This document shows positions 1 to 39,608 of a stretch of 59,931 nt of DNA, in pieces. The notes beneath the pieces are model-generated. The model worked only from the letters and a program-made list of their open reading frames with translations, ran no database searches and was not told where the DNA came from. The DNA comes from a virus (Duplodnaviria > Caudoviricetes), in the IMG/VR virus record IMGVR_UViG_3300042294_003065, positions 1-59,931 of that record; one strand, given 5' to 3'. How positions within the stretch are numbered: position 1 is the stretch's first letter; each line of letters opens with the position of its first letter. The translations under genes and the position numbers were made by a program.

Positions 1-160
1 GCTCATCATACTCATCCCAGACCGCAAGCAGCGGCCATGGCCATCCAAAGTCTCCGAGGATGAGCGTGCCGTTTCTCGGGGCCGTGTCTGGCGGCGACCA
101 AGTGCCGAACAAGGCACTGCTGCCAACTTTCGGGGCGGATGTAGTCTTTCGTGTTTTCAT
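1..160 (-). CDS. Small phage protein, DUF551-like, truncated by the window edge
   Basis: ATG at 160 overlaps the stop of the upstream gene; reads MKTRKTTSAPKVGSSALFGTWSPPDTAPRNGTLILG...; the W..P.TAP.DGT.IL pattern is typical of small phage proteins. Confidence 0.55.
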   Translation of the reverse strand, partial: MKTRKTTSAPKVGSSALFGTWSPPDTAPRNGTLILGDFGWPWPLLAVWDEYDE

Positions 161-205
161 GGCTTTTTCGCCGCCCCTTCGGTCGGCAGAGTTTGATCGT
201 TCGGC
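104..205 (+). other. attC-like recombination site A
   Basis: R'' GCCGAAC 104-110, 5-nt spacer, L'' ACTGCTGC 116-123, inner stem GGGGCGG/CCGCCCC, L' GCAGAGT 186-192 (one extra base in L''), 6-nt spacer, R' GTTCGGC 199-205. Confidence 0.75.
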
Positions 206-360
206 ATGATGACAGTGCCGTCAGCGTCACCGCCCGGCGTAGGGAATACGCCCCCTCCGCCAGTTAGCTCTCCCCATTTCCACCCGCGTTCTACGCGCGT
301 CCACGAGCCCCCACCGATAGCCGGAGCCTTGGTTCCAATGGGATAGTCGCTCCATTTCAT
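157..360 (-). CDS. Hypothetical protein lying between the two attC-like sites
   Basis: MKWSDYPIGTKAPAIGGGSWTRVERGWKW...PNDQTLPTEGAAKKP; its C-terminus is encoded by site A. Confidence 0.65.
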   Translation of the reverse strand: MKWSDYPIGTKAPAIGGGSWTRVERGWKWGELTGGGGVFPTPGGDADGTVIMPNDQTLPTEGAAKKP

Positions 361-409
361 TGTGCGCTTCACTCGCCGCCGCTGTTCCGATTCGTAGCTT
401 TCCCACCAC

Positions 410-509
410 GCCGAACCACGCGCTCCAGCGGACAGCGCCGGGCTTGGGAGGTCAGCGGACATCGGTGCTCCTTTCGCCCGGCGTCGCCGCTGAGCTTGAG
501 ACGTTGCCG
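410..509 (+). other. attC-like recombination site B
   Basis: R'' GCCGAAC 410-416, spacer CACGC, L'' GCTCCAGC 422-429, stem CGCCGGGC/GCCCGGCG, L' GCTGAGC 489-495, R' GTTGCCG 503-509. Confidence 0.75.
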
Positions 510-661
510 CCGGCAGCCCGCTCTACGGGCTGCGAATCACGTATTTCTCGGCACCATAAGCATTCGACCTTTCCGCCAATGGGGTGGCTCCAGAAGTGTT
601 CGCGCATCGGGCTCCGGCAATCCATGCGGGCGGCGCGCGTTTCCTTTCGTGGCTCGCTCAT
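452..661 (-). CDS. Small hypothetical protein (Cys/His-containing); 3' end runs into attC-like site B
   Basis: ATG at 661 overlaps the stop of the upstream gene; CLWC motif. Confidence 0.55.
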   Translation of the reverse strand: MSEPRKETRAARMDCRSPMREHFWSHPIGGKVECLWCREIRDSQPVERAAGGNVSSSAATPGERSTDVR

Positions 662-1254
662 TCGTGCTTCCCTGTCTTCACCCACCGATGGAACGCTGTG
701 GCGACGTAGCTCTCATGGGGCTGCAAGCTGTCCAGCGATTTGAACTTCCGCCACTTCTCATTGGGGTGTGTCTCGATGAAGCGGGTGAAGTCGGGCTGCA
801 AGTTTGCAGTCGGCGTTGTTGCGGCTGGCTTCATGTCCTTGGGGTCGAAGATGTCTCTCCACTGGTTGAGCGTGGATGCGTCCAGCGAGGCCAGGACGCC
901 TTTTGTGCCAAACCGCTGTCCGATGCTGCGCAGCTTGGGCACCAGCAGGCGCACCGCTCTCTCGGTCAGTGGGTACTTGATGGCGCGCATTTCCACGAAG
1001 CCCTTCCATGCGTCCGCGAACTTCAGGCTGGAGAGCCACTCGTTGGGCAGCAAGTCCACGAAGAGGTCGCCGGTCTTGCGCTTGGCTCCGTTGAGCACGG
1101 GCTCCGCGGTGAGCCGGAAGCCACCCTTGGGTTCCTCCTTGGGGATGTCGATCCATTTTTCCTCCCGGTAGTCGGAAGCGCTCTGCCATTTCTGCTGGAG
1201 CTTCCCGCTGGCGCTCCATCGCAGGTGCATGGTGGGCATGTAGATTTCGCTCAC
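658..1254 (-). CDS. Replication initiator-like protein (weak call)
   Basis: AWKGFVEMR...PLTERA...L...NQWRDIF resembles the C-terminal domain of phage replication proteins; GTG start overlaps the upstream stop. Confidence 0.45.
   Translation of the reverse strand: MSEIYMPTMHLRWSASGKLQQKWQSASDYREEKWIDIPKEEPKGGFRLTAEPVLNGAKRKTGDLFVDLLPNEWLSSLKFADAWKGFVEMRAIKYPLTERAVRLLVPKLRSIGQRFGTKGVLASLDASTLNQWRDIFDPKDMKPAATTPTANLQPDFTRFIETHPNEKWRKFKSLDSLQPHESYVATAFHRWVKTGKHE
796..809. promoter_or_regulatory. Palindrome copy CTGCAAGTTTGCAG (1 mismatch)
   Basis: Variant of the 14-bp genome-wide palindrome. Confidence 0.6.
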
Positions 1255-1466
1255 AGCTCCCCCCATTCCGGACACGCCTCACGGGCGGCGATGTCCCATT
1301 TGACCAGCTCGCCTCTGGTGTTTTTGCCCTTGCTTATCGGCGCAGAGAGGCAGGCAAGCAGGCGCTCAGCGCGCTCCCTCATGGCCGGCGTGCTCTTCCT
1401 GCTCATCACCACGCAGGCGAGGTTCAGGATGGCCTTGAGTTTGTCCGAATCAGTCATGGCAGTCAA
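1251..1466 (-). CDS. Hypothetical protein
   Basis: Overlapping start/stop chain with neighbouring genes. Confidence 0.6.
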   Translation of the reverse strand: MTAMTDSDKLKAILNLACVVMSRKSTPAMRERAERLLACLSAPISKGKNTRGELVKWDIAAREACPEWGEL

Positions 1467-2254
1467 TCCCTGACCTTCATCACCCGGACGTGGGCGACGG
1501 GATGGATTTGGGTCTGGAGGGGTGCTGGCGGGGCTGGTGGCGCTGCGGCGGCCCCATTGGCGAGGATCTCCACGTCACGCATGAATGGGCGGATGCCGTC
1601 GAGGATCTCGTAGCGCCCCATCTTGATCTGCATCTCGTCCACCATGAATACCTCAGCCCTGGAGTGGCACTCGAAGAGCAACTCGAACTGGCGGGTTTCG
1701 TAGTTGGTCCTCACGCTGGACGGGCGCAGGTCTTTCTTGCACAGGGCGCACTGGAAGTAGGCGCGCTCCAGATCGTAGGCGTAGTCGGAGCGTGGCGGGA
1801 TGTAGGCGCGGTCGTCGCGATATGAGATGGAGTCGGGCGGACTTTTGAAGAAGCTCGGCGGGATCGCGGTCTCATCTTGGATTATGCGCAGCATCTCTTT
1901 CGTGAGATCAAAGGTGGAATTTTTGAATGTCACACTGGCGCTGTCGAGCGCCTTCTTCACCTCTGGATTCTTCGTATTCCACGGACTGCTGAACTCCAAC
2001 CACGTCGGGCCTACCGGGCCGAAGGGGATGATGGTGTCCAGCCAGCTTGCGACCTTGATGGCGATGGCGGTGGATTTGATCTGGATGTTCCCGAGTGACA
2101 TTGAACGCAACTCGCCGTGGCATCTGAACTCCAGCCAGTCTGAATCGCTGTCGGCTATCCTTCTGACCGTTGGGATCACCGGCACTGCGCACTTGGGGCA
2201 CTCCCACTTCCGGGAGTTGATGAGGTCCTGAATGATCATGATTGGGAGGTTCAC
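1463..2254 (-). CDS. Hypothetical protein with two CxxC...CH zinc-ribbon-like units
   Basis: CPKC...FRCHG and CALC...FECHS repeated units. Confidence 0.65.
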   Translation of the reverse strand: MNLPIMIIQDLINSRKWECPKCAVPVIPTVRRIADSDSDWLEFRCHGELRSMSLGNIQIKSTAIAIKVASWLDTIIPFGPVGPTWLEFSSPWNTKNPEVKKALDSASVTFKNSTFDLTKEMLRIIQDETAIPPSFFKSPPDSISYRDDRAYIPPRSDYAYDLERAYFQCALCKKDLRPSSVRTNYETRQFELLFECHSRAEVFMVDEMQIKMGRYEILDGIRPFMRDVEILANGAAAAPPAPPAPLQTQIHPVAHVRVMKVRD

Positions 2255-2529
2255 TTGGCGTCCGGGAGCTTGCGCAGCTTCGATCTTTCGATCCAGCGAA
2301 TCTTCGGTGGCTTCACGCGGTCGTCGGGGCGATCGAGATTGCAGGCGACCTTCTTGTGCTTGATTGGACGGAAGCAGGGGACCAGCAGGGGCTCACCGCG
2401 GCGCTTCGGGAAAGCGAGGGCATCGGCGATTTCGTAGCGGAACTTGATGACCCGATCGGGCTTCTCGGCTGTTGGATACGGCTTGGCGAACACACATTGG
2501 TCGCCGGGTGTGAGTTTTTCGAGTGCCAT
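2251..2529 (-). CDS. Hypothetical protein
   Basis: ORF in the operon chain. Confidence 0.6.
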   Translation of the reverse strand: MALEKLTPGDQCVFAKPYPTAEKPDRVIKFRYEIADALAFPKRRGEPLLVPCFRPIKHKKVACNLDRPDDRVKPPKIRWIERSKLRKLPDAK

Positions 2530-2530
2530 G

Positions 2531-2896
2531 TCAGGTCTCCTTCACGAAGACTCCGCCGGTCATCCGCCCCTTGCGATCCTTGATCTCCTGCCACGCAGCC
2601 TCGATGCACTCCTCCATGGTGAGGTCCCACATCTGGGCCTGCATGACTAGGGTTACGACGATGTCGCCGATGGCGTCCTTGGCCTCCTCCTTGAATTTCC
2701 TGTGATCACTCTTTGCGTCGATGGTGCCGTGCATCACCCCGCTGGCGTGGCCTTCCGCGCCCTCAATCGCAGCGCGAAGCTCCGCCACTTCCTCCTCGGT
2801 CTTCTTTTGCTGCCCGAGGCATGTGGCCTCTCCGGTTGGACCGATGAGGTTCCTGTCGATGCCCCATTGGATGATGTCTTGTTCTCTGTGGATCAT
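2531..2896 (-). CDS. MazG-like nucleotide pyrophosphohydrolase
   Basis: IIQWGIDRNL...EEVAEL...DAIGDIVVTL...EECIEAAWQEIKDRKG is the phage MazG-like signature. Confidence 0.88.
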   Translation of the reverse strand: MIHREQDIIQWGIDRNLIGPTGEATCLGQQKKTEEEVAELRAAIEGAEGHASGVMHGTIDAKSDHRKFKEEAKDAIGDIVVTLVMQAQMWDLTMEECIEAAWQEIKDRKGRMTGGVFVKET

Positions 2897-2918
2897 GATT
2901 TGTCTTTCTTGGTTTGGG

Positions 2919-3125
2919 TTATTTTGCCAGCAGGAAGTCTCTGGCTCTCTCACGCCGCAGGTTTCCGCTCTTGGGCAGCACCTTGCCGGCTTTCTCCAGC
3001 TCCTCCCATGTGGTGTCTCCGGCCTTCACCAGCGCCCATGCGCTCATGTAGTCGAAGCGGCAGAGGCCGCGGGAGAACGCCTTGTTCTTGCATCCGGGGA
3101 CGAGGCATTTGGGCTTGGCGCTCAT
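2919..3125 (-). CDS. Small Cys-rich hypothetical protein
   Basis: CLVPGC...RGLC motif, a common phage zinc-binding module. Confidence 0.65.
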   Translation of the reverse strand: MSAKPKCLVPGCKNKAFSRGLCRFDYMSAWALVKAGDTTWEELEKAGKVLPKSGNLRRERARDFLLAK

Positions 3126-32915: not shown

Positions 32916-35900
32916 CTATGAATTGAGGATGGTGTCAAGGCGGGCGGAGAGACTGGTGCCGGCTTTCTTGCCCAGTCCGGCAAATGCCTCCGGGGCGAAC
33001 TTGCGGCCGATGTAGGCGGTGCCGATGACTGCTGCTCCCAGCTTGGCGGCGTTGATCATCCCCTTGTTCTCCTCCCGCTCATACCAGCGCTTGGGGCGGC
33101 GGTTGCGCTTGATCACGCCGGGGCGGTTGCGGACCCAGTGCTCCCATTGGTCGGGATACTGGGTGTTCTCGTCGAGCTGGATGAGCTTCGCGCCGGAGGA
33201 TAGCAGGCGGTCCGTGAGCTTCTTGGCCTCCTCGGCGATCTCGGCCTCCCGCTCCGTGCGACCGAGCTGACCGGGAGTGGCGGAGCGGACAGTCTTGAGG
33301 GCCTCCGGTGACATCCCGGCGGCGGCCTCATTGAGGGCTTCCTGCTTCTGCTGCGAGGTCATGTGCGGGAAGGGCGTGACCTTGGATGTCTCGGCTGCCT
33401 TGGTGGCTGCCCCGACGTTCTTCGAGTCCACCCATTTGTTCACTTTCCCAACGATCCCACCAGCGACTCCGGATGCCTCGTTGCCGGCGTTCTGTGCGGT
33501 CTTGGGAAAGAAGCTGCGCACCTTGTCGTAGGCTTCCGCCACGGGCTTGGGGACTGACTTGCGGATGGCTGACTGGACCTCCCCTTTGTTCCATCGGTTC
33601 TGGAATCCACGCATGGCAGAGTCGCCAGCGAAGCCCGCCTTGCCGCGCATGATCTTTCCTGCGGCCAGGAGGGAGCCTCCGGTGATTCCGATCGCGATCA
33701 GATTCTTCGCCCACGGCTTCTCCCACTCCCTCTTGCGCGGGCGTCCACGGGTGTCCACGGCCTTCTCTCCGCGCAGGGTGCCGCCGATGTCCTTCAGGAC
33801 TCCGGTGCCCCGGCGGTAGGCTTGCTGAATGTCCTGTCCGCGGCGGCTGTAGTTGACCTTGATCTCCTTGCCGGTGGCGGTCTCGCCTCCGATCCAGCGG
33901 CGGCTGTCGAAGTAGTCGAAGTTGATCACGGGCTGGCGGGCGCTGAAGAGCCTGCTGGCCCCGTAGAGCCCGAGTCCGGCGATGCCGAGCCCTGCTGCCC
34001 GGCGGCCCATCTTGGAGGCGGCCAGCTTGGCGCTCACGAGCTTGTCGTAGCCGCGCTTGCCGGTGAGTCCGATGGCCCCAATGGCGGCGGCTTTCCACGG
34101 CATACCCTCAGCCTGCTTGGCTCCACGGGAGCGGTCCCCGTAGATGTCCTTGGTCCCCGCGGTGGAGGCGCGCACCCCGATGGCGGTAGCTGCTCCGGCC
34201 CCGGCCCCGATGAGCGCACGGGCCTTGGCTGGCATGGTCCCGCGAAGGGCGGCTCCGAGTCCGGCTCCGGCTACAGTCGAGCGGAGGATGTTTGCGTCCC
34301 GGCGGTCGAGGTCCTCGTCCTGGATCTTCTTGCGGTAGCGGTCGGCGGCCAGCTTTCCGGTGAGTGGGACCTCGGCGAAGCGGATGGGAATGAGGCGCGA
34401 GGACATGCGTTGATCTTCCTTTGCCTTCTTCCTTCGGTTCTCCATGTATTTTCTAAAACCATAGACGCCTCCGATGACTCCGAGGCTGGCTGCACCGACG
34501 CCGATCATTGCTTTGTGTGTGCCGCGACTGGCATTCGCATCCGCCTCGTCAATCTGCTTTCCGAGCTTCTGTCTTGCAGCGTCTCCGCGCTCCTTCATTA
34601 CGCGCAGTTCATCAAGATCGCGCTTGATTGCATCCCGCTGCTTTAGGACTGGCCTGATCTTTCTGACGACCTCCGCGACAATCTTCTGATCATGCCCGCC
34701 CCCTTGCGCGACAGCCCTTTTGAATGTGCCCGAAAGCCGGTCTCCGAGACCTCTCTCCATGGCTGTGCCCTCCGCCAAAACCTTGGCGGCGTAATTTCCC
34801 CTAGCAAAGTAAATGGCGCTGGCTCGCGAGGACATGCGTTTGGTCTTTCCTCCATGCAGGGCGTCAACCGCGCTGCCCTCGTCCACGCCCTGATAGACAC
34901 CGTAGCCCCCGCCGCCGATGGCTCCGATGGCCGCTGCGCCAGCGGGTCCGGATCGGTTGGCCCAGGTGATCGGCCGCCAGTCAGCGTGCTTCGTCATAAA
35001 GGCGCGGCCCTTGGCGGTCTTGAGAGCCAGTAGCCCGGCGGCTCCGCCGGCTACGGCTCCACCGATTCCTCCGCCGAGCGCCGCCCGCTTGGTGTAGGCG
35101 GCCCGCTCGCCGGGCTTTGGATTGCCGCTGATGGCGTTGCCGATGAGGACTGATCCGGCGGCCAGTCCGGCGAGGGTTCCGCCTACTTTGCCGGCGATCT
35201 TGAGGGTTGGGCCGACTCTTGATCCTACCTTCAGGGCGGTTGGGATTCCGGCCACAAGTGCTCCGGTGGCTCCCGCGGAAAGTCCGGCCACGATGGATGG
35301 ATGGAGATGCTTCTTCTCAGCGAAGTGAATCGAGTTGCCCTTGGCGGCGAGCTTGCGCTGATAGATGTCACTGCGCCTGGGCGCGGGTTGCTTGACGGGC
35401 CATGCTGCGGGCTTATTTCCGATCCAGAGCGGGCGGGCCTTGATGACCTTCTCCACGTTATGACCGATGGCTGCCCCGGCGAGTCCTGTGCCGGGGGTGA
35501 CGCCGCCTCCGGCTACTACTCCGGTGACGTAGCCCACCTTGGCTCCCGTGGAGAGTCCCTTGAACTTGGCGAGCAGCTTCTTCACGAGGCTGGGCTCGGC
35601 GGGGCGCGAGGTCTGGATGAAGTTGGAGAACTTGCTGGAGAACTCGGTGGCGTATTCCGGACGGCGGGAAGCGTATCCCCCTGCTCCGCCGATGGCGAGA
35701 CCGGAGCCGATGCCGATGGCGATCTTCTTGCGGGCACCTCTGCGGATACCGGCGATCTCCTCGGCTTTCTTGGCGTTGGTTTCCCCAATGAAGCTCTCGC
35801 GGGCGATGGCGTATTCGTTGCGCTGCTTCTCACGCAGGGCTTTCTCGGAGGCGCGGACGCCCGCTGTTTCCATCCTGGCCTTGGCGATCTCAACTTCAGC

Positions 35901-38900
35901 GGCGTGGCCTGCCGCTTTGTCTCCAGCTCTCTCGCTGACGATTCCGTTGTACATGCGCGCCTTCTCGCTGGCGGCTTTGCGGGTCTCCCAGTCGTGGCTG
36001 ATCTTGATGTCCGGCTTCTTCCGCTCGGCATCCCGGCGCAGGACGATGCGCTCGTGGCGCTCAAGTCCCGGATTGGAGATGCGTGGCGCGGCCTTGCGGT
36101 CTTGCTTGATGAAGCGCGCCAGTTCTCTTCGGGCGTAATCCATGGTGTCCATGACCGGCGCTCCGGATGCCTGTGCTTTCTCCCAAATCCTTTTGGCGTA
36201 CGGGTTGTTGGGGAGCTTCCAGTTCTTCGCGCTGACTCCAAAACGGATCAGGCGCAGTCGCGATGCCATGAGCCGTTTCTGCGGCTCGTCCTTTTTCTTC
36301 AGGAGCCTGTTGGCGAGGTATCCGGCTCCGAGAATGCCGGCTCCGATGCCGATTTTTTGCAGGGTTCCAGTGCCGGGGTTGGGCGGGTATTTCCGCACGC
36401 GCGGGCGCTGGCTGATACCCTCGAAGAGTTCGCCCGAGTTGATGATGCGGCGCTTGATGATCCGCTCGGCTTTCTCTCCTCCGGCGGATTGCAGGAGTCC
36501 GAGGCGGGCCTGGGTGCGGTCGAAGCGGGCGCGCAGCTTCTCGGGGTCGGTCTCCTTGGACCAGATGGCGGATGCGGTGGTGTCCTTGACGGCTGCCTTG
36601 ATCGGGTTCTCGGATGGCGTGGCGAATCCTCCCTGCGGGGCCGGCTTGTTCTTGATCGGCGCGAGGATGTTCTCGGCCTTGGCGAGCCGCTCGGCGTCAT
36701 CCAGTCCATCGGTCGGGATGTTCTTCAGAGCCCGCTTCTCCAGTGCCCCGGTGTACCATGCGGCACGCTTCTTCCAGCGGGCCTGCCTTTCCTCCACGAG
36801 CTTCGGCAGCTTGGCCATCGCCTCGTTGACGATGCGGGGCTGCACTCCGCGGTCCATGGTCCTGCCGGTCCAGTTGGTCACGGGCCTGCCGAGATACTGG
36901 CGGCCGTAGGCTTGGGTGATCTCCTTGCGGGTGGCGAGTTCCTTGGCCAGGTCCCGGCGCACGGGGGTCATCGCCTCTCGGAGCTGCTCGCTGTTGCGGG
37001 TCAGCTTGGAGCTTTCCTTTTGAAACTGATCAGAAAGCGGGTCGCTGGTCGGCGCTCCGTCGCGGCGCACCTCGATGAGCTGCTGCTTCTTGGTTTTGAT
37101 CTTTGCCCCCTTGGCCTTGAGGTCCGCGAGGTTTCCCTTGATGACCGGCTCGGAGGCTTTGCGGAAGCCCTCGGTGTCCCGCCAGTCTGCCGGGTAGTGG
37201 CCGTAGCCCTGCTTGAAGGGCGGAAGCTCCTGATGCTTCTTGGCCCTCGGGGCGGCGGCGTAGTCCTCACCTTTTTTGAATTCCCCCTTGGGGTATTTCT
37301 CCATGCCGGGAAGGAGCTGGGTGGACTCGGCTCCGCGGCGGCGCTCGGGTGCCCCGCTCACACTGGGGTCGAGGATGCGCTGGCGTCCGCCGACATCCGT
37401 GACGCGGGGCGTGATCTTCTTCTCGCCTCCCTTGAAGCTGGCGAACACCGGGTCCGCCTTGCTCTGCACGGCCTGCCGGATGGCGCGGAGGTCGGCGTTC
37501 TTTTCCCATACGGAGCCGCGCAGGAGGGCACTGGCGCGCTTCTGGCTGGCTGCGGTGCGGGCCTCGCTGGGGCGGTCGAATCGGATGGTCTTCATCTTGC
37601 TGGAAAGCAGCCGTGTGATCTGCCGCGCCACCTCATCCTTGTCGCGGGCGGAGTCATTGAGCAGATCCTCCACGCCCTTGCTGGAGCCAGGGAAGAAGCG
37701 GTTCTTCGGGCGACCCACGTAGGAGCGGACATCCACGCTGCGGTCCTCGGGGTCCAGCGAGGCGTGGCTGCCCATGCGGGCCGAGCGTCCGACGACCTGC
37801 CGGATCTTGGCGTTGTTGAAGTGGGGTTCGAGGACCTGCACCATGCGGGTGCCCTTGAGGTCGAGGCCCTCCGCTCCGGAGGAGGAGACGAGCAGCGCGC
37901 GGTGCCTACCCTCGTTGTAGTCACGGACGGTCTGGTTGCGGACCTTCATGGTCTCGTTGCCGGTGAAGACGCCGTGCGGGATCTTGGCGGCGGTCAGGCG
38001 TTGCTGGAGAGGCTCGATGCCGTGCTTCAGCCAGTTGGAATAAACCAGTGCCTTGCCCTTGGGGTTCTTGAGGTGGCCTTCGAGATCGCGGAAGGCGCGG
38101 TCGATCTTGGGCTCATCCGCGCTGGAGGGATCGAGAGCGCGGGCGCTGTTGCTCACCTGCCGCGGGCCGGTCAGGTAGGGCTTGAGCCGGTCGATGTTCT
38201 CCTGGCTGATCTTCAGGCCCTTGGGGACACCGCCGAGGCTGGCTCGGTAGAGGGCGCTCTGGTGCTTGGTCATCTCCACCGGGATGGTCTGCGATGTGAC
38301 CTTGGGCAGCATGGAGGGATCGCCCTTGTGGTAGTCCACGTATTTGTTCAGCACCTTCTTCAGCTCGCCGGAATGACTGAGGCGCTCACCCCTCCAGCGG
38401 GAGAAGAAGTTCGGACGGGTGTAGCGGTTCTCGAATGCCTTGCCCTCGCGCAGGACGGGCTTGCCGGCGGCCTGGTTGACCAGTGTGCCGATGTCGGAGG
38501 GGTTGTTGAAGATCGGGGTGCCAGTGAGCAGCATCCGCTTTTGCGCAGGGCTGCCCTTAATCGCGTCCGAGAGGGCCGACTTGGGGTTACGTGCCCGGTG
38601 GGCCTCATCGACGATCAGGAGGCGGCTTTTTAGCGCACCACGGCCCTTCAGGGAGAGGGCCTGCTGGCTCATCACGTTGGCTTCAGGGCCTCCCCAGCGG
38701 GCGGTCTCCTTCCGGTAGTTCTCACGCAGGGCGGCCGGAAGGATCACGTCGGCACTTCCGCCCATGGCCTTGTGGGCTTCGATGGCAGTTCTGGTTTTCC
38801 CCGAACCGAGGCCGTGGGCCACCACGAGACCGGACTGGCTGGGGTCCTGGATGCGGCGGATGACGCGGCGCTGGTGGGGCTGGAGTTCTTCGGCAAATTG

Positions 38901-39608
38901 GATGGGCTTCGCCGCGATCTTCTTCCTCTTCGCGATCGTGCGGCGCTTGGGACCTGCGATCGGTGATCGCTTGCCTCCTGTGTCTCCGTCCGGTTCTGCG
39001 GTGCAATACATGAACTGGATGAGGGGGGCTTTGGACGAGCAGTTCCACTTCCGTAGCGAGAGCGCCTTGCGGGTCGGCTCCCCGTTGGGCTTTTCCATCG
39101 GACCCTGCATGCCGGACATCCGGGCGCAGAAAGACTTGCGGCGCTTGGCCGGCTTGGAGTCGGGATCGAGCTTCGAGGGCGGCGTGGTCACGGCCGTCTT
39201 GAGCTTGCTGCCGGGGTTCTCTCGGCGGTAGCTGGCTACGCCCTTGCGGTTGAGTCCGCCTGATTCGCTCTTGCCTTCCTTGCGCTGCCACGCTGCGGAT
39301 GCCAGCTCGATCGGCGCTGCGGCGGACTGCATGCGCTGGACCTTCACGGTGATCTTCTGCTTGCCCTGCTTGAGGGCGGCGTTTGCGCGGTGATTGCCAT
39401 CAAGGATCGAGTATTTTCCATGCCCGCGGTGCGAGACCGTCACGGTGCCCGGCATGTTTTTTGTGAACCTTGCCAGTTTCTTGATCTTCTTCTCGCTCAC
39501 CGTGCCCTGCGTGCTCACAAGGTTCTTGAGCTTGATCTTGCGCTCGGTGCCCTTGCCGATGCGGTGCATCCCTGGCTTGAGTCCTTCGACGTAGAGTGGG
39601 TTCTTCAT
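32916..39608 (-). CDS. 2230-aa polyvalent polyprotein-like gene: ParB/Srx-like, DUF6321-like, SNF2-family helicase, then basic glycine-zipper modules
   Basis: ILDGNHR; AWQRKEGK...GGLN.KG..SY...RRKSFCARM...RKWNC; helicase motifs LQPHQ, HGLGSGKT, DEAH, LTGTP, EGLDL, QVVGRSAR; about 11 linkers. Confidence 0.85.
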   Translation of the reverse strand: MKNPLYVEGLKPGMHRIGKGTERKIKLKNLVSTQGTVSEKKIKKLARFTKNMPGTVTVSHRGHGKYSILDGNHRANAALKQGKQKITVKVQRMQSAAAPIELASAAWQRKEGKSESGGLNRKGVASYRRENPGSKLKTAVTTPPSKLDPDSKPAKRRKSFCARMSGMQGPMEKPNGEPTRKALSLRKWNCSSKAPLIQFMYCTAEPDGDTGGKRSPIAGPKRRTIAKRKKIAAKPIQFAEELQPHQRRVIRRIQDPSQSGLVVAHGLGSGKTRTAIEAHKAMGGSADVILPAALRENYRKETARWGGPEANVMSQQALSLKGRGALKSRLLIVDEAHRARNPKSALSDAIKGSPAQKRMLLTGTPIFNNPSDIGTLVNQAAGKPVLREGKAFENRYTRPNFFSRWRGERLSHSGELKKVLNKYVDYHKGDPSMLPKVTSQTIPVEMTKHQSALYRASLGGVPKGLKISQENIDRLKPYLTGPRQVSNSARALDPSSADEPKIDRAFRDLEGHLKNPKGKALVYSNWLKHGIEPLQQRLTAAKIPHGVFTGNETMKVRNQTVRDYNEGRHRALLVSSSGAEGLDLKGTRMVQVLEPHFNNAKIRQVVGRSARMGSHASLDPEDRSVDVRSYVGRPKNRFFPGSSKGVEDLLNDSARDKDEVARQITRLLSSKMKTIRFDRPSEARTAASQKRASALLRGSVWEKNADLRAIRQAVQSKADPVFASFKGGEKKITPRVTDVGGRQRILDPSVSGAPERRRGAESTQLLPGMEKYPKGEFKKGEDYAAAPRAKKHQELPPFKQGYGHYPADWRDTEGFRKASEPVIKGNLADLKAKGAKIKTKKQQLIEVRRDGAPTSDPLSDQFQKESSKLTRNSEQLREAMTPVRRDLAKELATRKEITQAYGRQYLGRPVTNWTGRTMDRGVQPRIVNEAMAKLPKLVEERQARWKKRAAWYTGALEKRALKNIPTDGLDDAERLAKAENILAPIKNKPAPQGGFATPSENPIKAAVKDTTASAIWSKETDPEKLRARFDRTQARLGLLQSAGGEKAERIIKRRIINSGELFEGISQRPRVRKYPPNPGTGTLQKIGIGAGILGAGYLANRLLKKKDEPQKRLMASRLRLIRFGVSAKNWKLPNNPYAKRIWEKAQASGAPVMDTMDYARRELARFIKQDRKAAPRISNPGLERHERIVLRRDAERKKPDIKISHDWETRKAASEKARMYNGIVSERAGDKAAGHAAEVEIAKARMETAGVRASEKALREKQRNEYAIARESFIGETNAKKAEEIAGIRRGARKKIAIGIGSGLAIGGAGGYASRRPEYATEFSSKFSNFIQTSRPAEPSLVKKLLAKFKGLSTGAKVGYVTGVVAGGGVTPGTGLAGAAIGHNVEKVIKARPLWIGNKPAAWPVKQPAPRRSDIYQRKLAAKGNSIHFAEKKHLHPSIVAGLSAGATGALVAGIPTALKVGSRVGPTLKIAGKVGGTLAGLAAGSVLIGNAISGNPKPGERAAYTKRAALGGGIGGAVAGGAAGLLALKTAKGRAFMTKHADWRPITWANRSGPAGAAAIGAIGGGGYGVYQGVDEGSAVDALHGGKTKRMSSRASAIYFARGNYAAKVLAEGTAMERGLGDRLSGTFKRAVAQGGGHDQKIVAEVVRKIRPVLKQRDAIKRDLDELRVMKERGDAARQKLGKQIDEADANASRGTHKAMIGVGAASLGVIGGVYGFRKYMENRRKKAKEDQRMSSRLIPIRFAEVPLTGKLAADRYRKKIQDEDLDRRDANILRSTVAGAGLGAALRGTMPAKARALIGAGAGAATAIGVRASTAGTKDIYGDRSRGAKQAEGMPWKAAAIGAIGLTGKRGYDKLVSAKLAASKMGRRAAGLGIAGLGLYGASRLFSARQPVINFDYFDSRRWIGGETATGKEIKVNYSRRGQDIQQAYRRGTGVLKDIGGTLRGEKAVDTRGRPRKREWEKPWAKNLIAIGITGGSLLAAGKIMRGKAGFAGDSAMRGFQNRWNKGEVQSAIRKSVPKPVAEAYDKVRSFFPKTAQNAGNEASGVAGGIVGKVNKWVDSKNVGAATKAAETSKVTPFPHMTSQQKQEALNEAAAGMSPEALKTVRSATPGQLGRTEREAEIAEEAKKLTDRLLSSGAKLIQLDENTQYPDQWEHWVRNRPGVIKRNRRPKRWYEREENKGMINAAKLGAAVIGTAYIGRKFAPEAFAGLGKKAGTSLSARLDTILNS

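Follow-up and report, generated by a model that had tools for sequence, protein, structure and literature searches.

Gene starts and stops within attC-type sites of a lake phage: a cassette array probably recombined by host integrases

Integrons have usually been treated as bacterial devices, and clusters of their attC sites in phages were reported only in 2023, from the genomes of cultured phages. The part of that report on which we draw (Qi et al. 2023, PMC9892861) describes a screen of 10,705 NCBI phage genomes in which integron parts were found in 21 phages, 17 CALINs among them, and shows that IntI1 recombined five of six attC sites taken from virulent phages. A CALIN, in the portion of Cury et al. 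(2016, PMC4889954) cited here, is a group of two or more attC sites with no intI close by, and that same portion treats chimeric attC sites within arrays as a signature of integrons. The attC geometry with which we compare our sites is that given in the relevant section of Nivina et al. (2016): R boxes of 7 nt that include AAC (consensus RYYYAAC / GTTRRRY), a UCS of 5–6 nt, usually a G at position 16 and a conserved T at 23/24 with a 6-bp stem between the two, a total length of 57–141 nt, and cleavage between A and C of the bottom-strand AAC. Designed attC sites that lie within coding sequence stay recombinogenic, as stated in the part of Nivina et al. (2020, PMC7439510) used here. A limited literature search found no further report on attC clusters in phages; since phage CALINs were published in 2023, the general kind of locus described below is already known.

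Two attC-type sites at the end of a tailed-phage record

Packaging and structural genes mark the window (the whole stretch of DNA that was analysed, 59,931 nt long) as the DNA of a tailed phage: its terminase large subunit matches phrog_15 at 249 bits, and a portal protein and a major head protein score 102 and 98.6 bits. Between position 1 and about 41.7 kb its genes are read from the minus strand and follow closely on one another, stops overlapping starts. A blastn search of positions 1–3000 against 50,697 phage records returned just short matches in the MazG region, in three records, and the search of related loci found no relatives of the window's O-like protein. The features at the left end of the window with which this report is concerned are collected in Table 1.

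Table 1. Features of the virus record and of its left end (numbering is that of the window; crossover points are those predicted from the sequence)
Feature	Position or length	Strand	Description
Whole IMG/VR virus record	59,931 nt		Linear, about 82% complete
Cassette W, right-hand part	1..199	+	Site A plus the first 53 codons of gene 2..160 (-)
Gene 2..160	2..160	-	First 53 codons; start 158-160 inside site A, ATGA overlap with the stop of gene 157..462
Site A, attC-type, divergent family member	104..205	-	R1 match 46.7 bits, E 5.5e-11; perfect 7-bp R box (104-110 with 199-205); crossover + strand G199|T200; L stem with compensatory changes and one extrahelical C; loop with ATG 158-160 of the next gene and stop 157-159 of gene 157..462
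Gene 157..462	157..462	-	101 aa; ATG 460-462 inside site B, stop 157-159 inside site A
Cassette X	200..503	+ (attC top strand)	TTCGGC, then antisense gene body, then site B to G503
Site B, attC-type	410..509	-	R1 match 410-508(-), 56.5 bits, E 9e-14; bottom strand (gene-sense): 5' R box 503-509, 3' R box 410-416; crossover + strand G503|T504; loop with SD GGAG, ATG 460-462 of gene 157..462 and stop 452-454 of gene 452..661
Gene 452..661	452..661	-	69 aa, CxxC-type; array-upstream gene, last codons and stop (452-454) inside site B

A first-pass annotation, made from the letters of the sequence, had described two tandem attC-like hairpins here. The box coordinates that it gave are all correct (on the plus strand, GCCGAAC at 104–110 and 410–416, GTTCGGC at 199–205 and GTTGCCG at 503–509), and the sequence bears out its statement that the R'' box of site B is the exact complement of the R' box of site A. 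Counted from the 3' end of its bottom strand, site B has its R box at positions 1–7 and an unpaired 5-nt spacer at positions 8–12 (the opposite arm has 7 nt); next come three pairs, an extrahelical G at 16/17 (window 425/426), six further pairs and an extrahelical T at 23 (window 432). The site is about 100 nt long and would be cleaved between A and C of the bottom-strand AAC. Site A shows the L-box pattern partly, since it has a C at position 16 and no bulged T; bacterial sites of the same attC family (below) have G or C at position 16.

The R boxes of site A, GCCGAAC and GTTCGGC, pair at seven of seven positions with one departure from RYYY. Site B has the AAC and the GTT, its 5' R box (CGGCAAC) departs from the RYYY consensus, and its outer four bases are unpaired within the site and pair at all seven box positions with the box of site A; such a lack of complementarity between R'' and R' within one site is expected for an array with chimeric R boxes. 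The two window sites are 99–102 nt long and the phage sites as a set (below) are 64–182 nt long with unrelated centres; two of the 31 distinct phage sites exceed 141 nt.

Folding of the bottom strand, which the first-pass annotation had proposed as a check, gave a divided result. Site A is clearly more stable than shuffled sequences (DNA z of -3.1, reached by 1 of 200 shuffles; RNA z of -5.5, reached by none of 200), and site B is no more stable than its shuffles (DNA z of -0.35 and -1.3; RNA z of -0.8), so folding energy alone is insufficient for the finding. An Rfam scan of positions 1–3000 at E ≤ 10 returned no attC family and three unrelated matches below their gathering scores.

Homology with bacterial integron sites, and arrays in other phages

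A search of viral contigs with the 101-aa protein of gene 157..462, which itself has no Pfam or PHROG family, found loci that match just its first 16–33 residues. The corresponding DNA, window positions 409–506, is a repeat of about 97 nt that is present two to three times per contig in other viral contigs, where copies of site B are 96–98% identical (blastn). In the consensus of this repeat, inverted boxes (GCCGAAC ... GTTCGGC) form the ends, and between them are a conserved stem (AAGCTCAGCGG ... CCGCTGGAGC), another stem further in, and a loop with GGAG and ATG. There are also divergent copies which keep the boxes around unrelated centres, and site A is such a copy, with compensated changes in its stem.

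Bacterial genomes, one per prokaryote species, were scanned with a pattern that combined both conserved boxes of the stem, and at least 120 bacterial stretches matched. Among the matches listed, many of those that end in AAC and GTT carry the textbook attC boxes GCCTAAC ... GTTAGGC, arrays reach 13 copies in 8 kb (locus L147), and the hosts of the arrays are mostly Verrucomicrobiota and Planctomycetota MAGs. In one bacterial locus, L057, six copies begin about 450 nt from an integron integrase gene (TIGR02249, 474.6 bits against a cut-off of 265), and an IntI above this cut-off was found in three of the four array-bearing genomes that were searched. In L057 the integrase is on the minus strand with the array to its right, the pattern is on the minus strand, and all five cassettes have their longest ORF on the plus strand, which identifies the pattern strand as the attC bottom strand. 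The same arrangement prevails elsewhere in the family: the top strand carries the longest ORF of 27 of the 34 cassettes in nine bacterial arrays, and two of the seven exceptions are IS transposases. Among 63 bacterial cassette ORFs, Pfam matches were found for three, two of them IS transposases on the pattern strand and the third a NIF phosphatase on the top strand, opposite the pattern strand, and so few matches make this a weak test of the coding strand.

A family-specific covariance model (R1) of the R and L stems, with 16 pairs, was built from 83 bacterial copies reduced to 35 that are less than 85% alike; it contains no phage sequence, and its training sites come from bacterial contigs in which one array adjoins an integron integrase gene. 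On the entire window (both strands, filters off) R1 gave 20 matches at E ≤ 10, of which two, sites A and B, are significant (Table 1); the third-best scores 11.8 bits (E 0.39), and there is no R1 match upstream of 509 in the window. The score of site B is partly circular, because the training sites were collected with a pattern derived from the phage repeat. Site A does not fit that collecting pattern, and its score is therefore independent of how the training sites were chosen. On this evidence from sequence comparison, sites A and B are genuine attC-type sites, homologous to the attC sites of bacterial integrons, and the identity proposed for them in the first-pass annotation holds. Both matches are on the minus strand, which places the phage genes on the attC bottom strand; the claim that these genes run opposite to normal cassette genes is thus also confirmed, since most bacterial cassettes of this family have their genes on the top strand.

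Applied to viral sequences, R1 gave 58 matches in 16 of 32 viral loci, with two to seven sites per contig and all sites of a contig on one strand. About 15 viral contigs other than the window carry such arrays; they come from different samples, and in some of them the array is in mid-contig. In three (L019, L026 and L032) it lies just upstream of the terminase gene. Another viral locus, G007, is a complete DTR genome of 51,359 nt (rated 100% complete) whose seven sites, each with E < 0.001, share a single strand. Of the 28 viral contigs that had been found with the first pattern, 13 have neither an nhmmer nor an R1 match and were set aside as chance matches.

The 31 distinct phage sites allow a test of the stem itself. 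In a model-based alignment, nine L-stem pairs are 98–100% paired and eight of the nine show changes on both sides, with a covariation score of 0.265 against 0.102 for shuffles (none of 500 reaches the observed value) and at most 0.045 when the partners are slid, as expected of a structure that selection maintains; RNAalifold on a MAFFT alignment, in which the divergent copies are misaligned, recovered a partial stem. The R stem is paired in just 74.5% of cells, a low value that is expected if R boxes are chimeric between neighbouring cassettes.

These observations bear on the suspicion that the sites are an artefact, that is, chance hairpins or a chimeric assembly of bacterial integron and phage contigs. 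The position of the window sites at the very end of a contig and the unremarkable folding energy of site B could raise it, but the two matches have E values of 1e-10 to 1e-13 with nothing else in 60 kb, the same arrays occur in about 15 contigs of different samples, some of them mid-contig upstream of terminase, and one array is inside the complete DTR genome. Moreover, the genes at the window sites overlap as in one operon, and a contig from a further metagenome run (below) spans positions 476–3000. We give an artefact almost no weight.

The first-pass annotation suggested that the array may continue past the left edge, and this is the case in the near-identical contigs L019 and L032, where a third site follows 119 nt further on (sites A and B are 303 nt apart). 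It also stated that the window holds no integron integrase, and in agreement with this we found no PF00589 match in the 59,931 nt and no tblastn match with four IntI proteins. With at least two close attC sites and no nearby integrase the window, as an approximately 82% complete record, has the composition of a CALIN; the set of intI, attI and promoter beside the array that marks a complete integron was not found in it. IntI was likewise not found in ten related viral records, eight of which have no PF00589 match; the other two each have one sub-threshold PF00589 match, to a phage integrase of the ordinary kind (phrog_1, 63 bits) situated about 7 kb from the array. A metagenome scan with the phage-type pattern gave three contigs with the same arrays and no integrase.

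The complete genome G007 has no tyrosine recombinase along with its seven sites, and many of the window's proteins are without a family, both of which would suit a phage-encoded recombinase of another, non-tyrosine family that recognizes the hairpins and moves the cassettes. However, the phage sites have detailed geometry and boxes in common with the bacterial sites that lie beside IntI, and an examination of genes linked to the arrays across contigs produced no candidate recombinase, the neighbours being terminase, a transcriptional regulator and DNA-modification genes. We rate such an enzyme as highly improbable.

Gene junctions within the sites and cassette exchange among related phages

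The phage sites differ from the bacterial sites of the family in how often they contain a gene start. Of the 31 distinct phage sites, 27 have in their attC centre the bottom-strand start codon of an ORF with 30 codons or more, compared with 22 of 63 bacterial sites; in the phage sites this start usually lies 41–48 nt in, and the stop of an upstream ORF falls within 27 of the 31. In site B the upstream stop comes 8 nt after the ATG, and the GGAG of the loop is predicted to pair with a CUCC, so that a ribosome finishing the upstream gene would, on this model, open the hairpin and free the start. Gene 157..462 takes its first 16–18 codons from the 3' arm of site B and its last 14 or so from the 5' arm of site A; the leader from site B is fused in frame to the cargo, and the cargo part of the protein (residues 37–97) has 61% identical relatives elsewhere that are without the leader. 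In another contig, L040, the start codon within one site leads into a leader of only 35 codons, and this leader overlaps the start of the cargo. Gene 2..160, of which the window holds the beginning, has 111 codons at its full length in L032, and homologues of gene 452..661 lie within the arrays of L040, L016 and L026, where they start in an attC loop. Among the array cargo that could be identified are proteins like PAPS reductase (152.9 bits) and Mom (112 bits) and a fragment of a DNA methyltransferase; the remaining cargo has no family.

If the sites are recombined as attC sites, gene exchange between related phages should be bounded at G|TT, as the first-pass annotation predicted, and related phage contigs show exactly such boundaries, both as indels and as mosaic joints. 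Between the window and L032, site B is conserved with few mismatches and so is the sequence from site A leftwards, with the body between them (206–409) and everything beyond 503 unrelated; the two letters before the C that both contigs have are AA in the window and AT in L032. L035 has cassette W in common with the window and a different attC right after GCCGAAC.

One indel separates L029 and L040, whose identity is 100% across 4,700 nt of one flank and 99.1% across 2,451 nt of the other. Their difference is one 272-nt insertion that runs from the C after GCCCAT to TCCTAA, and the insertion's own attC box, GTTAGGA, is the perfect complement of its end. The single site of L040 agrees with one L029 site in its left six bases and with the other in its remainder. 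Such a composite fits an A|C crossover on the gene-sense strand but not one in the opposite orientation; the exact joint could lie anywhere within 3 nt (CGC). In a second pair, L016 has three cassettes more than L026 (351, 310 and 1,047 nt) at one A|C point.

A cassette that was moved in this way should carry, in the inner R box of its site, the complement of its own first bases. In cassette X the inner R box (410–416) is complementary to the cassette's own first bases plus G199, with pairing at seven of seven positions with the next site and five of seven within its site. Over 19 distinct junctions, which were taken from related contigs and are not fully independent events, the 3' box has its better partner in the 5' box of the next site in 13 cases, in the 5' box of its own site in one, and equally good partners in both in five (sign test, p = 0.0018), and perfect 7/7 pairing occurs 11 times with the next site and once within the own site. 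Non-canonical triplets covary in the manner expected: GGT goes with ACC, GAT with ATC, and GTTATAT with ATATAAC. The junctions L035 2254->1034 and L040 7858->8766 do not fit the rule.

One cassette is also common to phage contigs that are otherwise hardly alike. Cassette W is 97–98% identical at the translated level between the window and L032 or L035 (site A itself is 97–98% identical in these two contigs), and window positions 1–100 are 100% identical in L014 and L019; beyond cassette W almost nothing of the window matches L032 or L035 by tblastx, and the terminase gene of L032 has no tblastx match in the window at E ≤ 1e-8. The terminase regions of L019, L026 and L032 are 96–97% identical to one another and their arrays are different.

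Homologous recombination at other repeated boundary sequences in phage genomes has been proposed, and an explanation of this type can be considered here too. The sites could be domesticated relics, derived from attC and no longer recombined by an integrase, that are kept as mRNA hairpins with SD and AUG which couple translation, the shuffling being homologous recombination within the repeats of about 100 nt. Several observations are what this explanation would lead one to expect: SD, start codon and upstream stop are present in 27 of 31 sites, GGAG–CUCC pairing appears in the predicted fold, repeats that are 90–98% identical are good substrates for homologous recombination, no integron integrase occurs in any phage record examined, and in copies c9 and c10 homology is lost inside the L arm and not at the R box. 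It does not, however, account well for the 272-nt indel, which lies between dissimilar sites (s5 and s6 of L029) that have just CGC in common at the junction, with flanks that are 99–100% identical, nor does homologous recombination predict own-end complementarity with covarying non-canonical triplets (13 junctions versus one). The extrahelical bases at 16 and 23 are in addition without obvious use in an RNA coupling hairpin. We therefore consider domesticated relics unlikely, with a probability that is small and not negligible.

The distribution of the locus in nature was followed in metagenomes. The first 3 kb of the window were found in 24 listed lake or freshwater metagenome runs from 2016 to 2024, four of which are possibly the window's own source. 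In four other runs the summed depth of contigs at 401–500 is about 5 to about 1000 times that of the flanking bins (these are contigs and indicate presence only), and the contigs in those four runs diverge at 205/206, 411 and 503–505; the contig that spans 476–3000 (above) comes from a further run. Separately, a single contig in run X5 (side 25) joins 205 to 411, a weak observation.

With respect to the host, the attC arms are closest, at 42 of 48 positions, to sites in Verrucomicrobiota/Chthoniobacterales MAGs. In the four genomes with the most similar attC arms the 101-aa cassette protein has no match, and TerL gives matches at just 24–25% identity. The arms may point to a Verrucomicrobiota-type host integron, and we offer this as a lead only.

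Interpretation and comparison with known systems

We think it probable that window 1–509 is the end of a CALIN in an accessory-gene region of the phage and that it is most likely recombined in trans by a host integrase. This reading draws directly on the homology to IntI-associated attC sites, the canonical geometry, the arrays, the exact A|C indels and the own-end complementarity, and also on the presence of one cassette in phage contigs that are otherwise barely related; from these sequence comparisons we infer present-day recombination of the sites, the identity of the integrase and the translational coupling. On the top strand (window plus) a cassette would consist of TTxxxx, an antisense cargo gene and an attC ending in G; in the direction of the genes it would be an attC bottom strand followed by its cargo. 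The folded single-stranded attC would be the substrate of an integron integrase, and cleavage of the 5' AAC at A|C by this enzyme would result in the insertion, removal and exchange of whole cassettes. In the mRNA, the 5' arm of the attC would be the tail and stop of the upstream gene, the loop would hold the Shine-Dalgarno sequence and the start codon of the cargo, and the 3' arm would be a short N-terminal leader. Because stop, SD, start and leader all lie within the attC, any cassette would then be a translationally coupled plug-in for the phage operon. Since no integrase was found in the phage's own record, the enzyme would be the IntI of the infected host, acting in trans.

More tentatively, and with slightly less than an even chance in our estimate, lake phages may keep their own pool of 'backwards' cassettes, in which a cassette inserted by a host integrase would be expressed immediately through translational coupling and without a promoter, with cassettes, for DNA-modification enzymes and many unknowns, passing between hardly related phages and arms that may reflect a Verrucomicrobiota-type host integron. 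Should the DNA of infecting phages indeed be acted on by host integrases, integrons would be a route by which phages obtain counter-defence genes, for example those of DNA-modification enzymes, and would bridge the cassette pools of phages and bacteria; the type of attC could in addition serve as a host marker for uncultured phages.

The comparison with described systems shows both what is shared and what sets this locus apart. Like sedentary chromosomal integrons and bacterial CALINs, as characterized in the part of Cury et al. (2016, PMC4889954) considered here, it has arrays of similar attC sites, short cassettes that are mostly of unknown function, and chimeric R boxes; unlike most bacterial cassettes of its own family, it has every gene on the bottom strand, read through the sites. 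The synthetic coding attC sites in the portion of Nivina et al. (2020, PMC7439510) used here likewise place a hairpin and a reading frame on the same DNA, but those sites were designed, whereas the present ones are natural, lie at gene junctions and also include a stop, an SD and a start codon. A natural recombination site would thus be both coding sequence and translation start, a design that had so far been only engineered.

The closest relatives are the phage CALINs. In the part of Qi et al. (2023, PMC9892861) consulted for this comparison these are, as here, attC clusters of two or more sites that have no intI nearby, they occur in virulent phages among others and have DNA-modification cargo, and host integrases and intercellular movement of cassettes were proposed for them. 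The cassettes described there have a bacteria-like orientation or divergent sites, whereas here all genes are on the bottom strand, and that part makes no mention that we found of bottom-strand coding, of start codons in attC or of cassette indels between near-identical phages. The present arrays, unlike those covered there, belong to uncultured lake viruses, and their attC family is one that they have in common with the integrons of Verrucomicrobiota and Planctomycetota MAGs. They add evidence at the level of populations, in that phage cassettes appear to have been gained and lost at the canonical crossover point between genomes that are 99–100% identical, and that one cassette is common to phage contigs with almost no other detectable similarity to the window. 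As far as the sequences indicate, what is new here relative to the phage CALINs already described is the inverted, translated and start-codon-bearing design of the sites together with the recent turnover of their cassettes.

Metagenome depth over the attC-type sites

In four lake or freshwater metagenome runs whose contigs match the first 3 kb of the window (X5, X7, X10 and X12), the summed contig depth over site B (window 401–500), the attC-type site at the right end of cassette X, exceeds that of the flanking bins by a factor of about 5 to about 1000. The value in run X12 is 2984.8 versus about 1–108 in the flanking bins, and in this run the remainder of the phage is also far shallower than site A, to the left of cassette X, and cassette W, which runs past the left edge (window 101–200). 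The sites and cassette W are therefore present in other, more abundant genomes of the same lakes.

A single contig in run X5 has an apparent 205 to 411 joint that would leave out the cassette body and place site B directly after site A; its shorter side is just 25 letters long.

Integron features of the bacterial stretches

Two long "cassettes" in bacterial integron arrays (L147 and L057) are insertion sequences, each flanked by attC sites and each on the attC bottom strand; the transposase matches listed for them are DDE_5 (249 bits) and IS110-family (65 and 64 bits). The single 5.4-Mb genome that holds L147 (G001) has four integron-integrase genes above the TIGR02249 cut-off (357–416 bits), and further copies at C7:347117-348060 are broken and spread across three frames.

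Features listed by location
Feature	Location	Strand	Basis
Insertion sequence as long "cassette"	L147:2690-4054	+	transposase match
Insertion sequence as long "cassette"	L057:2982-4331	-	transposase match
Long attC-type site, 182 nt	L016:6227-6408		length
Long attC-type site, 153 nt	L035:2556-2708		length
35-codon leader ORF	L040:6986-7093		start codon in attC
108-aa cargo gene	L040:7090-7416		start overlaps leader ORF
2,230-aa ORF, DNA helicase family match	window 32916-39608	-	phrog_62, 128 bits

Other features of the window

At its N-terminus the 2,230-aa ORF carries a domain that recurs in several PHROGs with no assigned function. At about 41.7–42.5 kb the coding strand switches and so does the AT skew, which passes from about -0.1 to -0.3 before this region to about +0.1 to +0.2 after it; this switch marks a divergent transcription point.

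Leader peptide and long sites in related viral contigs

In L040, the ORF opened by the attC start codon is only a leader, and it overlaps the start of the cargo gene by ATGA; this arrangement suggests that some cassettes are coupled by way of a leader peptide instead of carrying it as a fusion. In the centre of the L016 long site lies the start of a small ORF of 103 codons that is rich in Cys, and this site and that of L035 are longer than the range typical of attC sites.
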